Origin: Calditrichaceae bacterium | GTDB taxonomy: Bacteria > Calditrichota > Calditrichia > Calditrichales > JBFXGD01 | NCBI GenBank assembly: GCA_050173015.1 | Contig: JBFXLE010000014.1 | Location: forward strand, 1-64,000 | Length of the DNA: 64,000 bases | Direction of reading: 5' to 3' | Program-made: the position numbers | In this document: piece by piece, positions 3,001 to 9,000 of the stretch | Numbering within the stretch: position 1 is the first letter of the stretch | How the letters are laid out: every line of letters starts with the position of its first letter

Positions 3001-6000
3001 CGCCGCTTTTACATTGGGGGACCATCTTGGCTTTACGGCGGCAAATAAGCCTGATATGATATTTTCAGTTATAGTTGGAAAGTTGGTCGGCGGTGTTACA
3101 GCGGTCATGTTTGCCATGCTGATTGCCCCGAAGAGAGACGCGGTAAATGAAAAAGAAATAATCAATGAAAAGGTGATTTCTAAATAGAGTGAATCAGCTG
3201 GAGAAATTAATAATAAAACTCTTTTCCTCCTCCACGAATAGCCCGTCTAAAAGAAGGCGGGCTATTTTTTTTAATACGTGATAATCTATATAAAATCAAT
3301 TTTGTTCTTACAATGGTTTTATTTTTTAGTTGAATTGAGAAATTTTTGTATCTACTTTAATCATAGTAGAAGAATTGTAAGTTATAAACAATATAGTGAT
3401 TTGTTTCACATAGTATATGAGAGGACAAACCTTTTTTAAAGCGAAATAATTCAACCTCGTCTGAAATCAACGTCGCGCCGCAATTGGAAGTTATCACATC
3501 TGAACCGGAGTCATCATTTTACTATTCTATCCTCGTAAAAAAGAATGATTCAAAATATAAATATTGAAGTATCATCAACATCTAAACTATAAACATACGA
3601 AAAGGAGAATTCAATGGTCGGCATTGTAGGATATGGTGCCTATATTCCAAGGTATCGAATCAAGGTTGAAGCCATTGCGGCGCAATGGGGTACCGATGCG
3701 GCAAGTTTCCGTAAAGGCCTGATGGTGGATGAAAAATCCGTTCCGGCTCCTGATCAGGACACAATCACGATGTCTGTTGAAGCAACCCGAAGGGCGCTTC
3801 AGCGGGCGGGAATTGATCCGGCGAAAATAGGGGCGGTTTATATCGGGTCTGAATCGCATCCTTATGCGGTTAAACCAAGCGGCACAACTCTGGCAGAAGC
3901 GATCAAAGCGGTTCCGGATGTTCATTGCGCGGACTTCGAGTTTGCCTGCAAGGCCGGTTCCGAAGCGATGTATGTGGCTATGCGTCTGGTGGCGGCCGGT
4001 GATATGGAATATGCTCTTGCCGTAGGAGGTGACACTTCACAGGGGGCGCCGGGAGACGCGCTGGAATATACCGCCTCCGCCGGCGCGGCTTCCTACATCA
4101 TGGGAAAGGACAATTTAATTGCCGAATGTGAGACCACCTATTCGTTTATGACGGATACACCGGACTTCTGGCGCCGCGATCTCCAATTTTATCCTCAACA
4201 CGGCGGGAGATTTACAGGTGAGCCGGCTTACTTCAAACACAGCTATAATTGCGCCAAAAATACAATGGATAAAGCAGGAGCAAAAGCATCCGATTTTGCC
4301 TTTGCTGTATTTCACCAACCCAATGGAAAATTTCCGACAAGAGTCGCGAAAATGCTGGGATTTACTAAGGAACAATACACTCAGGGGCTGCTGTGTCCAA
4401 AAATCGGCAACACCTATTCCGGGGCGTCTCCTCTGGGACTGACAGCTGTTCTGGATATCGCGAAGCCGGGAGACAAAATATTAATGGTTTCATACGGTTC
4501 CGGGGCGGGGAGTGATGGATTTATCTGGAAGGTGACCAACCGGATTACAGAAGTTCAGGATAAAGCGGTCAAAACATGGGACATGATTAACGGCGAGAAG
4601 GTATATCTGGATTACGGACTTTATTCAAAATACCGTCGTAAGATTATTAAAAACAACTAATAATCAAAATGGAATTTTAAAAGACAATTTCAGGAGAATA
4701 AAATGAGTCGAGATGTGGCAATTATTGGAATTGGATACAGCAAATGGGGCGAGCTTTGGGAGAATTCCCTTCGTGATATTTTTGTTGAAGCTGCCCTTAA
4801 CGCCATCGATGATGCGGGTGTGGACAAAATAGATTCCATGTATATCGGAAACATGAGCGGCGGACTCTTTAACGGACAGGAGCATATCGCGTCTCTGATG
4901 GCGGATTATCTTGGTGTGGCGCCTATTCCTTCAACAAGAGTTGAATCGGCCTGCAGTTCAGGTTCCCTGGCTGTTAAAATGGGGTATATGGATGTGGCGC
5001 TGGGATTGAGTGATGTGGTTCTTGTCGGCGGCGTTGAGAAAATGACGGATGTGGATACCGATGAAGCGACCTATGCCCTGGCAAGCGCGGCGGATCAGGA
5101 TTTCGAAGTGTATCATGGAATCACGTTTCCCGGTCTTTACGCGATGATGGCCAGAACGCATATGGAAAAATATGGTACAACACGCGAACAATTGGCCCGG
5201 GTTGCGGTGAAAAATCACTTTCATGGATCAATGAATCCTATGGCTCAGTATCCGCAAAAAATTACAGTCGACGCGGTTATAAATTCGGTAATGGTTGCGG
5301 ACCCGCTTAGAATTCTGGACTGTTCACCAATCACCGACGGGGCCGCGGCGCTTATTCTTTGTCCGGTGGAACTTGCCCGGAAAATAAGCAAAAAACCGCC
5401 GGTTAAGATCATAGGACTAGGGCATGCGACGGATTCCATTGCCCTGCACAGCAGGAAAGACCTGACAAAATTGAACGCGACCATCAAAGCGGCGGAAGCG
5501 GCATACAAAATGGCCGGTGTGAATCCGGGTAAAATCGATGTGGCGGAAGTTCATGATTGTTTTACCATCGCTGAAATATGTATCCTTGAATCTATTGGAT
5601 TTGCTGAAACCGGTAAGGGGGGCGAAGCGACGGCATCCGGGATGACTACCCTGGGAGGTAAAATTCCGGTGAATACCAGCGGTGGACTGAAATCAAAAGG
5701 GCATCCCGTCGGAGCTACGGGAGTCGCCCAGATCGGTGAAATTGTTAATCAACTGCGTGGAACAGCGGGTGACCGACAAGTGAAAGACGCGCGGATAGGA
5801 TTGACACAGAACATGGGCGGAAGCGGAGGAAGCACATTAATTCATATTATGGAGGTGATGTAATGTCGGTACCAAAATATTGGCGTGAAATGCCTCATCG
5901 ATATCGTCTGGAAGCGGGAAAATGTAAAAAGTGCGGAAAAGTGGCCTTCCCAAACCGGCTGATTTGTCCGGAATGCAAGGGCCGTGAATTCGAAAAAGTG

Positions 6001-9000
6001 GAATTGAGCCGCAATGGCAAACTGATTACTTATACGGTGATACATGTGTCACCAAGTAAATTCAATGATCAGGTACCCTACGCAGTCGGAATCGTTGAGC
6101 TGAATGATAATGTCAGACTGCTTTGTCAGATAAGTGATTGTGATGTGAATGCATTAAAAACCCGGATACCGGTTCGTATCGAATTCAGGCGGGTATCATC
6201 CGAGGGAGAAGCGGGAATCATCAATTACGGATATAAATGCGTTCCCGTCCGGGAAAATTAGCGAATGTGGATGCGGGCATGAATCTTGTCTCCATCTTTT
6301 CTGCCTGCATCCTTTTAATCGCGATTAAAACAAATGATGTTCCTGAATGGATAAGAGGATAAACATATGTATCATCTGGAATTAACAGCAAAAGAAAAAG
6401 AAGTGCTCCTGAGAGTGCTCGAAAATCAGCTGGCTGACCTAAAAGAAGAATATGTGGAATCCGAATGCAATTATTTCAGGGAGCAGCTCCGGGAAAAAAG
6501 CGATACCATCACACACTTACTTTATGAACTGAAGCAATCGAGGGATGACTGGAATTAAGTGGTTTGATCTCTACCGCGATGGATAAAGAAATTAGCGAAA
6601 TTTAAGTTTTGAATTATCAGGAAGAGTAATTTGCCGTTATCGCGGACAACCTTCGCATAGATTGCAGGCGTTGAGGTGATAAACAATAACGGCGGCATGT
6701 AAAGGATGAAATAGATTATCCGTCCGGCGGATTCTCATCCCGGATTAATTTTGTATCATGACACGCGGAAGAAGTATCTTTTCCATATTTTTCCGTTTGA
6801 TAAATTTTTTTCCCGTGGATATCATCCTGAAATGCCCGCGTTCCGGCTTCGTGGATCGTTTTCCTTATTCAATTATCTTGAAATATACGCTCTCGCGCTT
6901 TTTACCTATCTGCAGAGGCAGTTCATATCCTGATCTCAACTCATTGAGTATCAAGTCCGGAATATATTTCGCTAAAAACGTGATGAATGACGTTGATTCC
7001 GTATGGCGCACAGATATATATTCATTAGCTTGTTTGAGAATAAATTCGCAAAATATTTCACAAAAAATCGACGGAGTTGAGAATGTGTGGTGTTGTTTCC
7101 CTGATCTATGAAAATGAAAATTCAAATCTGGGCCTTGAAGCCGCCTGGTTGCTAAAGAAACTGGAATATAGAGGATACGACTCAACCGGAGCCGCGTTTA
7201 TCAGTGGTGATAAGGTCATTTTGAAAAAAAAGACCGGCGCTCCGTCAAAAGTGATAGATCAGTTAAAAATTGATCGGTGTACCGGTAAAAAATTTATCGG
7301 TCAGGTGCGATGGGCCACGTTCGGAGCTGTGAATGATGAAAACGCGCAGCCGCATAAAGCAGATTGTCTGGTGAGAATGGTTGGCGCCCACAACGGTAAT
7401 ATTTCGAACACTGACGCGTTAAAACAATTCCTTCAGGAAAACGGCCATACGGTTATTTCAGATAATGACGGAGAGATGCTGGTTCATATGGTGGAGCATA
7501 GTTTCCACGGAATATTAAATGGAAAAGACCCCGGCAGGCTGTCGGCAAAAGAAGCCGGAGAGATGATGATTAGAGCGGTGCGGGAGGCTGACTCCAAAAT
7601 TAGCGGCTCATATGCCGCATGTGTGACAATGGATGCATTGGACGGAATCGTCGCTATTAAGGCGGGTTCATCACTATACGCGGGCAGGGGCAACGATGAG
7701 AATGGCGAATTTATTGTGGTATCATCGGATTTAACATCCGTATTGTCAAAAACCCGTTTTTTGATTCCGCTTTCAGAGGGTGAAGGAATACTTTACAATC
7801 ACCATGATTATAAAGTTTTTTCGCTGAAGGAAGAGAAAGAATATGTACCGCCGCTGAAGAGATCCAGACTGAATATTTCCGATATCACTTTGCGTCCGGA
7901 ATATCAGTTTTTCATGGAGCAGGAGATATTTTCGACTCCCGCCAACTTTGATCTGCTGTTTTTGTATTATTTTTCAGATCCGAAGGACAAATTAATTTTT
8001 GATTTGTTTGAAAAAAATAAGAACGGATGGAAAAATTTATATTCACAATTATTATCGTTATATGATGTTTTTGATCCGGTTCGATTAGTAAAAATGACTG
8101 AAGATCTCGTACATTCTGAATTCTTTGGGGAAATAGAAAAAAATCTTGATGATTCCGACAAACCTGAATTTGTATCCCAGAACGCGCAGCTTCTCGGAGA
8201 GATAGCTGAACTGAATCCATCAATTATTTCAAAACTGGCTGTTCTTGACAGATTATCGGTTTGGAAAAAGAAACGCAGAATTATCCACTACAGGGATGTT
8301 TTGATAAAATATATGGATGAAAAGAATGCCGCCGGCGGGAAAATCTATCTGATTGGCGCCGGTACCTCTCATCATGCCTCCCTGATAGGCGGTTACTTTT
8401 TTAATAATCTTGCGAATATTCCGGTTATACCGGTCAATCCGGGGGCATTTCGTTCGATGTATCTGAACAGTCTGAATAAAAATGATTTATTGATTGCAGT
8501 TTCTCAATCCGGTGAAACAAAGGATGTTGTGGATGTCATTAATGATGTAAAAATTCTCTACCCTGTTGATAAGATTACTACTATCGCGATCGTCAATAAT
8601 GAAAATTCAACCATTCCTCAGGAAAAAGCGGATTTTTACCTGCCGATACTGTGCGGGACGGAAATTGCGGTTGCCGCTACAAAATCATTTACCAGTCAAT
8701 GCGCGTTATTTTATCTGCTTGCTTCATTGATTTTGAATAATGAAGAGACCGGGAAGAAAAAATTGGCGGATATTTCACTTGCCATCGATGAAACCTTAAA
8801 GAACTATGATCAGGTGATCACCGACCTTTCCGGAAAATTCTTTTTAAAGCCATCCCTTCATATTTTAGGTACTTCTCTCATTGGACTTGCCAAGGAGGGC
8901 GCGCTTAAAATAAGAGAAGTTGTCTTAAACCATTCGGAAGGATTTGATACCGCGGAATTTAAACACGGTCCAAATACCATATTGGGGCGCAACACCATCT

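Follow-up and report, generated by a model that had tools for sequence, protein, structure and literature searches.

How does a bacterium that shows no MEP core make its isoprenoids, and what part in this is played by a set of genes of archaeal type? The question is raised by genes for an HMG-CoA synthase, an acetoacetyl-CoA thiolase, and a DUF35 protein that lie together in the first 64,000 nucleotides (the window) of a contig from an uncultured member of the Calditrichaceae, whose assembly is 97.5% complete in 54 contigs. The trio is a bacterial, motif-intact version of an archaeal channelling complex, and in this genome HMG-CoA must be either its product or its substrate. Which of the two?

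The trio and the lower mevalonate operon

The archaeal-type trio at 3614-6261 given in a preliminary description of this DNA is real, as judged by family scores and by matches to the structure 6ESQ. The three reading frames run in the same direction (Table 1), the start of the DUF35 gene overlapping the stop of the thiolase gene. The synthase scores 534 bits against TIGR00748 (cut-off 353). The thiolase scores 558 bits against the broader subfamily NF004720 (cut-off 420) and 548 bits against the methanogen equivalog NF053570, below the cut-off of 600. The third protein, product of the only PF01796 gene in the genome, combines PF01796 with PF12172. The best solved relatives of the three are all chains of 6ESQ (477, 394, and 131 bits, respectively). 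The catalytic motifs, as defined in PMC12960953 (E-C-H-N, CxS, HDxF, GHx), are intact, as had been claimed, and both CxxC motifs of the DUF35 protein are in place. The E, C, and H of the synthase tetrad are kept in 128 of 128 alignment rows. Upstream, a putative terminator sets the trio apart from microcompartment genes.

Table 1. Features of the trio region in the window and of the lower pathway operon on contig C25
Feature	Position	Strand	Remarks
Terminator-like hairpin with T run, 3' of eutH	3236..3277	+	13-pair stem; consensus match only
Ribosome-binding-site-like purine-rich stretch ahead of the synthase start codon	3600..3609	+	Sequence reading
Archaeal-type HMG-CoA synthase (HMGS), clade type A	3614..4660	+	348 aa; E80-C112-H234-N266 intact
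Archaeal-type acetoacetyl-CoA thiolase	4703..5863	+	386 aa; CxS, HDxF (H284), and GHx intact
DUF35 scaffold	5863..6261	+	132 aa; zinc ribbon and OB fold
IDI-1	C25 50923-51489	-	
Class II HMG-CoA reductase-mevalonate kinase fusion	C25 51571-53823	-	750 aa
PMK-like kinase	C25 53853-about 54935	-	
Diphosphomevalonate decarboxylase (MVD)	C25 54932-55930	-	

The lower pathway lies on a different contig, in an operon whose reported fusion, MVD, and IDI-1 were all recovered. Scores exceed the family cut-offs for the reductase (TIGR00532, 443 bits against 260), the decarboxylase (TIGR01240, 308 against 171), and IDI (TIGR02150, 160 against 106). The PMK-like gene reaches only 145 bits with its best family, TIGR01220, below the cut-off of 165.7; it sits between MVD and the fusion, where a gene for this step would be expected. 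The kinase role of the fused domain had been assigned from operon position. The assignment stands, now with family score (TIGR00549, 252 bits against 163) and motifs to argue that the domain is a mevalonate kinase.

Fusion was said to be full-length in all listed homologs, and the three Pfam domains (PF00368, PF00288, PF08544) are indeed present in 120 of 120, in a score-ranked list that includes the query and is biased toward full-length fusions. Reductase and kinase motifs are kept in 112-120 of the 120. The cofactor helix, HxNxxxR, agrees at two of three positions with the NADPH motif (H/Y)xSxxxR and does not have the Asp that marks the NADH motif (definitions from PMC13488460); the reductase probably prefers NADPH. 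AlphaFold predicts the two domains without a fixed mutual orientation (mean pLDDT 77, pTM 0.47, low confidence at 430-435), and no solved chain spans both halves. This fusion is common, and its only label is that of a 'degradative' reductase. A search of the open-licence literature, which leaves most subscription journals outside, found no discussion of it or of mevalonate in Calditrichota. With its predicted kinase it is a candidate part for isoprenoid engineering.

This genome shows no parallel MEP route. IspG, Dxr, and IspH give no match, DXS is below cut-off, and no IspE-type GHMP domain is found, so that the core is absent, as first stated. The two enzymes said to remain fare less well: 'IspD' (35 bits) was a misreading of a GlmU-like nucleotidyltransferase domain, and IspF, though present, is decayed, its conserved Asp and His positions lost. 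IspG is absent from all 26 searched genomes of the order, this one included. Mevalonate is the only visible isoprenoid route, and motifs of both cis- and trans-prenyltransferases are present. The trio contains the only HMG-CoA synthase, the single TIGR00748 match over cut-off; the bacterial type occurs in none of 61 Calditrichia genomes. Finally, the genome has no HMGL-like domain, hence neither HMG-CoA lyase nor isopropylmalate synthase.

Two types of trio

An archaeal-type synthase had been counted in 34 of 41 Calditrichia. That it occurs in most of them holds (48 of 61 genomes over cut-off), but the set, formerly treated as one, pools two types of trio, A and B. The window synthase lies across a split of SH-aLRT 100 from the Chloroflexi-like (type B) synthases of 353-354 aa, with which it shares 56-58% identity. 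It is 58% identical to the Ardenticatena synthase, compared with 73% for a type B synthase. Its own clade of nine rows (support 95) includes the relatives G037 and G043, whose synthases neighbour genes for methylcrotonyl-CoA carboxylase (MCC). On this sequence evidence the window trio is of type A, unlike the type B of most Calditrichia. Because a search at 50% representatives brought up no reference sequences from named archaea, the tree lacks an archaeal outgroup, and I claim no donor.

Type A is a wide bacterial clade, often found beside MCC at the place of HMG-CoA lyase. In 80 close loci, MCC-beta stands near the trio in 39, crotonase in 38, and biotin carboxylase in 30, and in G037 and G043 the trio and MCC share one operon. 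(An apparent 772-aa synthase-thiolase fusion in G043, at L152, was rejected because a run of N had created it.) No MCC or hydratase gene is found in the trio's operon in the window. A lower-pathway gene is near the trio in none of 100 synthase loci (20 with flanks of 1.5 kb, 80 with up to 5 kb).

Among the 50 genomes with the closest synthases, IspG is present in 46 and the reductase missing in 37; 35 have IspG without reductase, and only 2 the reverse. Since the clade is mostly without reductase and beside leucine-degradation genes, presence of the trio alone is no proof of isoprenoid synthesis. The Calditrichia with only a type A trio all have the reductase (17 of 17). IspG is missing from 9 of these, the one-contig genome G037 among them, and the other 8 have both routes.

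Direction of flux through the trio

I propose that the trio supplies the mevalonate route of this genome. Since the nearly complete genome shows neither a working MEP route nor a lyase nor a second HMG-CoA synthase, this is probably the role of the trio, even though three classical thiolases are also encoded. Thiolase, synthase, and DUF35 protein would form a complex as in Methanothermococcus, turning three acetyl-CoA into HMG-CoA. The reductase half of the fusion would then reduce HMG-CoA, the same polypeptide would phosphorylate the mevalonate, and PMK, decarboxylase, and IDI-1 would end the route. The trio would have been acquired separately from the C25 operon, out of a bacterial clade of leucine/isovalerate (liu-like) clusters where it replaces the lyase, and would have become the entry to isoprenoids when MEP was lost. 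Because this branch of synthases is usually found beside leucine-breakdown genes, the trio may work both ways, and a catabolic role may be part of its function.

How far might that role go? The trio could run mainly backwards, leucine giving HMG-CoA through MCC and a hydratase, with a small part going to mevalonate and the rest split to acetyl-CoA in the lyase's stead, saving up to one thioester. A back-reaction of HMG-CoA synthase was reportedly seen in S. aureus by Theisen in 2004. The missing HMGL-like domain and the neighbours of type A trios speak for this. So does a carboxyltransferase of the MCC-beta family that adjoins a crotonase elsewhere in the genome (C2:234089-236568): among characterised carboxylase types it scores closest to human and Pseudomonas MCC-beta (480 bits, compared with 366 for the geranyl-CoA type and at most 279 for propionyl-CoA carboxylase types such as 1vrg), though its top two matches (496 and 494 bits) bear generic acetyl-/propionyl-CoA carboxylase labels. 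But that gene is of another subfamily, 44-46% identical to liu-linked MCC-beta, and the trio stands alone in this genome. The type A clade's usual neighbour scores 752-755 bits against MCC-beta. The C2 pair could yield HMG-CoA from leucine without the trio, a point against the proposed supply of mevalonate by the trio. In Acidobacteriota with an MCC-beta ortholog, a lyase of at least 300 bits is found in 0 of 15 genomes with the synthase and in 27 of 39 without it (Fisher p 4e-6; G133 left out, the 300-bit line chosen after the data were seen, and kin not independent). If any family match over cut-off is counted, the figures become 6 of 15 and 31 of 39, a weaker contrast (p 0.009). Matches of 250-295 bits were treated as belonging to another pathway, because the 11 loci examined (5 from the 50 genomes, 6 from Calditrichia) lie beside a CaiB-type CoA-transferase, recognised by eye; of the weak matches in the Acidobacteriota sample, the locus inspected was that of G086. 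Among lyase-bearing Acidobacteriota, 19 of 39 have an MCC-beta ortholog no more than 10 kb away from the lyase. Type B genomes also lack the lyase, and the final step of the synthase is a hydrolysis. Taken together, mainly backward flux seems rather unlikely here.

Forward flux might instead feed something other than mevalonate. In Myxococcus, the Aib route leads from HMG-CoA via methylglutaconyl-CoA to isovaleryl-CoA. A similar route to iso-branched fatty acids, with mevalonate as a side branch, would account for intact trios in the many reductase-free genomes, for their linkage to hydratase and carboxyltransferase, and for the want of isopropylmalate synthase. The linked operons hold an ATP-dependent biotin carboxylase, pointing to carboxylation and thus to degradation, and I think such a route improbable. 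It is harder still to believe that the trio has been repurposed as an acyltransferase, as in PhlABC/MucABC, or that it came into the bin as contamination from an archaeon. Repurposed bacterial trios have been described (PMC12960953), with matches here of 197-215 bits, but the E-C-H-N tetrad and HDxF, lost in those enzymes, are intact in the window. As for contamination, the same-genus genome G030 has upstream genes identical in kind and a synthase 97% identical, and the GC3 of the trio (0.44-0.49) is within the range of the genome (0.44 +/- 0.06).

A wider and quite tentative idea, which I would not call probable, is that the type A trio acts on HMG-CoA as a reversible valve. It would replace the lyase in many anaerobic bacteria that use MEP, giving three acetyl-CoA per leucine-derived HMG-CoA, one thioester above the textbook route. 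Its forward capacity would pre-adapt the host to a change from MEP to mevalonate that takes no more than the gain of the four-gene lower operon with the fusion. Calditrichia would then display the stages: both routes together (8 of the 17 type-A-only genomes), loss of MEP while a liu operon still holds the trio (G037), and the trio alone with ispF decayed (this genome). If reverse flux is true, many uncultured phyla of sediments ferment leucine and isovalerate with a last step that saves energy and has gone unrecognised, and the annotation 'mevalonate pathway' is mistaken for such trios in most of their hosts. No discussion of a lyase-free liu cluster or of reverse flux through the trio was found in the open-licence literature (most subscription journals fell outside the search).

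Comparison with known systems

The thiolase/HMG-CoA synthase/DUF35 complex of Methanothermococcus thermolithotrophicus was reportedly described by Voegeli et al. in 2018. Its structures (PDB 6ESQ/6ET9) are summarised in PMC12960953 and PMC11522927. The window trio, known here from its genes, keeps the three-gene set, the catalytic motifs, and the Zn-ribbon cysteines. It differs in its bacterial host, in a lower route (class II reductase, PMK, diphosphomevalonate decarboxylase) that is not archaeal, and in closest relatives that are linked to liu genes.

Use of the trio by a bacterium in primary metabolism, claimed earlier, holds insofar as it is the only HMG-CoA synthase on the only visible route. 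As a novelty it was overstated. In Chloroflexi, archaeal thiolase (AACT) and HMGS serve the mevalonate pathway (Hoshino and Gaucher 2018, PMC6107057), which proceeds by MPD/IPK, unlike the PMK/decarboxylase route here. The whole set of Caldithrix abyssi (APF19136/APF19138, APF20586-APF20589) stands undiscussed in the supplementary trees of that paper, APF20587 appearing in two of them as pieces of 443 and 315 residues; Caldithrix and the fusion both go unmentioned in the main text. The four genes of the lower set are the same in C. abyssi as in the window genome, but the C. abyssi synthase clusters with Chloroflexi and that of the window does not. The parts are known and the layout is partly in print, but the window synthase belongs to a branch linked to leucine breakdown.

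Liu clusters consist of MCC, methylglutaconyl-CoA hydratase, and HMG-CoA lyase. In the type A clade the trio replaces the lyase; in this genome, unlike those clusters, it lies apart from every liu gene. [quoted passage not shown] The Friedel-Crafts acyltransferases PhlABC/MucABC have the same bacterial HMGS/ACAT/DUF35 architecture, and bacterial copies have been framed as having lost the role of HMG-CoA synthesis (PMC12960953). The window genome and Chloroflexi argue against that loss as the rule for bacterial trios.

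The trio and its surroundings

The genome assembly (54 contigs) is 97.49% complete with contamination of 0.64%, and its nearest named relatives are Calditrichota. The preliminary description had placed genes for an archaeal-type HMG-CoA synthase (HMGS), a thiolase and a DUF35 protein side by side in the window, and this trio stands: the three reading frames, their family scores and their motifs are all present. For each protein the best solved match is a chain of 6ESQ, the Methanothermococcus complex, and the motifs are intact (E-C-H-N tetrad, CxS, HDxF, GHx and two CxxC pairs). 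According to Liao et al. 2026 (PMC12960953), these motifs divide true synthase complexes from PhlABC/MucABC. The thiolase falls below the cut-off of a further model, NF053570 (548 bits vs 600).

Features of the window and of other contigs (C) of the same genome; L, extracted loci
Feature	Position	Strand or context	Score or remark
Microcompartment cluster end	27-3187	gene order the same in another genome, G030	RnfC-like Fe-S protein, tandem BMC shell protein, lipoprotein-like ORF, EutH
Terminator-like hairpin	3236-3267	5' of trio	
Purine-rich stretch		just 5' of first ATG of trio	
Archaeal-type HMGS ORF	3614-4660	co-directional with thiolase, DUF35	TIGR00748 534 bits, cut-off 353
Archaeal-type thiolase ORF	4703-5863	co-directional	NF004720 558 bits, cut-off 420
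DUF35 protein ORF	5863-6261	co-directional with HMGS and thiolase	
GlmS-like protein, 840 aa	7077-9599		glutamine amidotransferase + SIS; two insertions, above usual length
Three molybdenum-hydroxylase (xanthine-dehydrogenase-like) sets	9837-35364	with amidohydrolase, carbamoyltransferase-like and accessory genes	first two ORFs by domain scan, remainder by eye
Diphosphomevalonate decarboxylase	C25	minus	TIGR01240 308 bits, cut-off 171
PMK-like kinase	C25	minus	TIGR01220 145 bits, below cut-off 165.7
Reductase-mevalonate kinase fusion, 750 aa	C25	minus	TIGR00532 443 (cut-off 260), TIGR00549 252 (cut-off 163)
IDI-1	C25	minus	TIGR02150 160 (cut-off 106)
Homoaconitase, single chain	C25:56202-58169 (L001:12203-14170)	divergent from mevalonate operon	TIGR00139 884 bits
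IspF-like ORF	C24:27107-27553 (L024:1432-1878)		frame open, conserved Asp/His positions gone
ORF of 388 aa	C3:18208-19374		hydrophobic N-terminal half; one part 33% identical to IDI-1

Two synthase types and the mevalonate route

Archaeal-type HMGS had earlier been counted as a single group in Calditrichia. It is indeed widespread, exceeding the cut-off in 48 of 61 genomes, but two distinct trios were pooled. A quick, midpoint-rooted tree of 128 synthases, built without an archaeal outgroup or partial ORFs under 290 aa, splits 31 sequences from 97 (SH-aLRT 100). The 31 (type B) are Chloroflexota-like, at 73% to Ardenticatena maritima and 70% to Thermoflexus. The window synthase falls among the 97 (type A), is at 58% to the Ardenticatena protein and scores 477 bits to 6ESQ, vs 427 for one type B protein. 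Type B alone occurs in 27 Calditrichia genomes, both types in 4 and type A alone in 17; IspG occurs in 0, 0 and 8 of these, respectively. All 15 IspG genomes among the 61 belong to two families of other orders. Bacterial-type HMGS is found in none of the 61, and the genome studied here has a single trio, which is therefore its only synthase able to feed the reductase.

That this genome lacks the MEP core, as had been claimed, is borne out: IspG, Dxr and IspH give zero matches, and the best DXS match reaches 172 bits vs a cut-off of 466. Two MEP genes had been said to remain. One, IspD, is a GlmU-like domain instead; the other, IspF, has an open frame but is missing the Asp/His positions of solved IspF proteins, which serve as zinc ligands. 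It may be read as an MEP relic or, alternatively, as having a non-catalytic role.

C25 carries all three GHMP domains of the genome. The fusion scores far lower on galactokinase and IspE models than on TIGR00549, and eight reductase/kinase motifs are each conserved in 112-120 of the 120 listed fusion homologs. Its cofactor helix, HxNxxxR, agrees with the NADPH motif at two of three positions and is without the Asp of the NADH motif (motifs from PMC13488460); this closer likeness to the NADPH motif favours, at the level of sequence, a biosynthetic reductase against the database label 'degradative'. The predicted structure has two domains of unfixed relative orientation (pTM 0.47).

Reductase is present in 56 of the 61 Calditrichia genomes, with open frames mostly of about 750-790 aa. 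Six of 14 reductase loci from other bins are also fusions (763-780 aa; identity 45-52% in the reductase, 30-32% in the kinase). These six (L110, L113-L117; Zixibacteria and others) have a decarboxylase-like gene directly 3', and five of the six genomes also have IspG. A second PF00368 gene occurs in 14 Calditrichia genomes (e.g. G004, G016, G022); its frame spans about 520-590 aa, and it outscores the fusion. Despite the homoaconitase on C25, no homocitrate-synthase-type domain was found in the genome.

Leucine degradation and the direction of flux

Elsewhere, type A trios keep different company. Of 597 confirmed loci, the best 80 show 63-80% identity and derive from Zixibacteria, Aminicenantes, Ignavibacteria, Eisenbacteria, Planctomycetota and others. 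In this set 78 have the thiolase, 69 DUF35, 39 a methylcrotonyl-CoA carboxylase (MCC) beta gene, 38 crotonase and 30 biotin carboxylase; none of the 80, many of which end at contig edges, has lower-mevalonate genes. The linked carboxyltransferase scores 752-755 bits to human and Pseudomonas MCC-beta and slightly more, 771, to one chain labelled propionyl-CoA carboxylase; at some type A loci the carboxylase is from a different subfamily (31-34%) or is missing from the neighbourhood. In 50 host genomes of unstated completeness, chosen by hand from those 80 loci for taxonomic spread, reductase occurs in 13, IspG in 46 and a lyase-family (HMG-CoA lyase) match, strong in three cases, in 8. Reductase is absent from G071, G078 and G096, records titled as chromosomes. 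Within one type A subclade the trio has an AtuA-family gene as a neighbour, whereas that of the genome studied here lies apart, on C40 (L126, L128, L156, L158, L161, L057, L065; L195). By eye, L178 and L183-L193 share a lyase-family gene and a CaiB-type CoA-transferase, often with an isocitrate-dehydrogenase-family gene.

A control drew on 151 genomes of Acidobacteriota, to which G096 belongs; the synthase is present in 33 and an MCC-beta ortholog in 55. With the unpublished G133 excluded, a lyase of at least 300 bits, a line picked post hoc with scores already known, occurs in 0 of 15 MCC-positive genomes with the synthase vs 27 of 39 without (p 4e-6), and any lyase match over cut-off in 6 of 15 vs 31 of 39 (p 0.009); both p values treat related genomes as independent, which relatives are not. 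In 12 of the 15, synthase and MCC-beta are at most 10 kb apart; for the lyase the same holds in 0 of the 15 vs 19 of the 39. One synthase genome without MCC-beta, G172, has a strong lyase.

No HMGL-like domain exists anywhere in the Calditrichaceae genome, hence neither lyase nor isopropylmalate synthase. Its C2 carries an MCC-beta-family gene, of a subfamily spread across the order, adjoining crotonase, and the genome also encodes acyl-CoA dehydrogenases and the E1 component of a 2-oxoacid dehydrogenase. Given trio and leucine-type genes but no lyase, HMG-CoA may have two inputs (trio, leucine) and two outputs (reductase, reversed trio). Because isoprenoids are essential and MEP was not found, mevalonate almost certainly receives flux, provided that the absences are real. 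The simplest reading is that the trio supplies this route, and it probably does. That it works mainly in reverse, as the leucine-type genes would allow, is unlikely; an Aib-like role is more improbable still.

In the nearest relatives, G037 and G043, trio, MCC, biotin carboxylase and carrier share one operon. The single-contig genome G037 shares the four-gene lower operon and lacks both IspG and any HMGL-like domain. Its one trio is linked to leucine/isovalerate degradation (liu) and is also the only synthase, which is the clearest pointer to a two-way role; that type A trios are two-way HMG-CoA valves I offer tentatively. The trio of the closest relatives is preceded by a 3-hydroxyacyl-CoA dehydrogenase-like gene and by a second thiolase, a divergent one (L152:3367-6063, L154, L026), adjoined by heterodisulfide-reductase-like genes (by eye). 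An apparent HMGS-thiolase fusion in G043 (L152:6220-8538) is an artefact of an assembly gap of N.

Comparison with published systems

In Hoshino and Gaucher 2018 (PMC6107057), Chloroflexi AACT and HMGS group with archaea, and the supplement places Caldithrix abyssi AACT (APF19136) and HMGS (APF19138) among Chloroflexi. It also includes C. abyssi APF20586-APF20589; APF20587 and one Ignavibacteria accession each appear twice, at reductase and kinase lengths, the trees being told apart by order and length. 'Caldithrix' and 'fusion' are absent from the main text. Liao et al. (PMC12960953) mined 1,030 bacterial HMGS/ACAT/DUF35 loci and characterised those tested as repurposed; four of the supplementary files leave Calditrichota unnamed. 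Passages of PMC11522927, PMC13001223, PMC7382037 and bioRxiv 2024.07.05.601840 describe neither the fusion nor a liu cluster that does without the lyase, and PMC7382037 models isovalerate degradation with the lyase. Every part of the present system is already known or in published trees. For this genome a role in mevalonate synthesis is the most probable one; what is distinctive is a liu-clade trio as the sole synthase of a bacterium without MEP.
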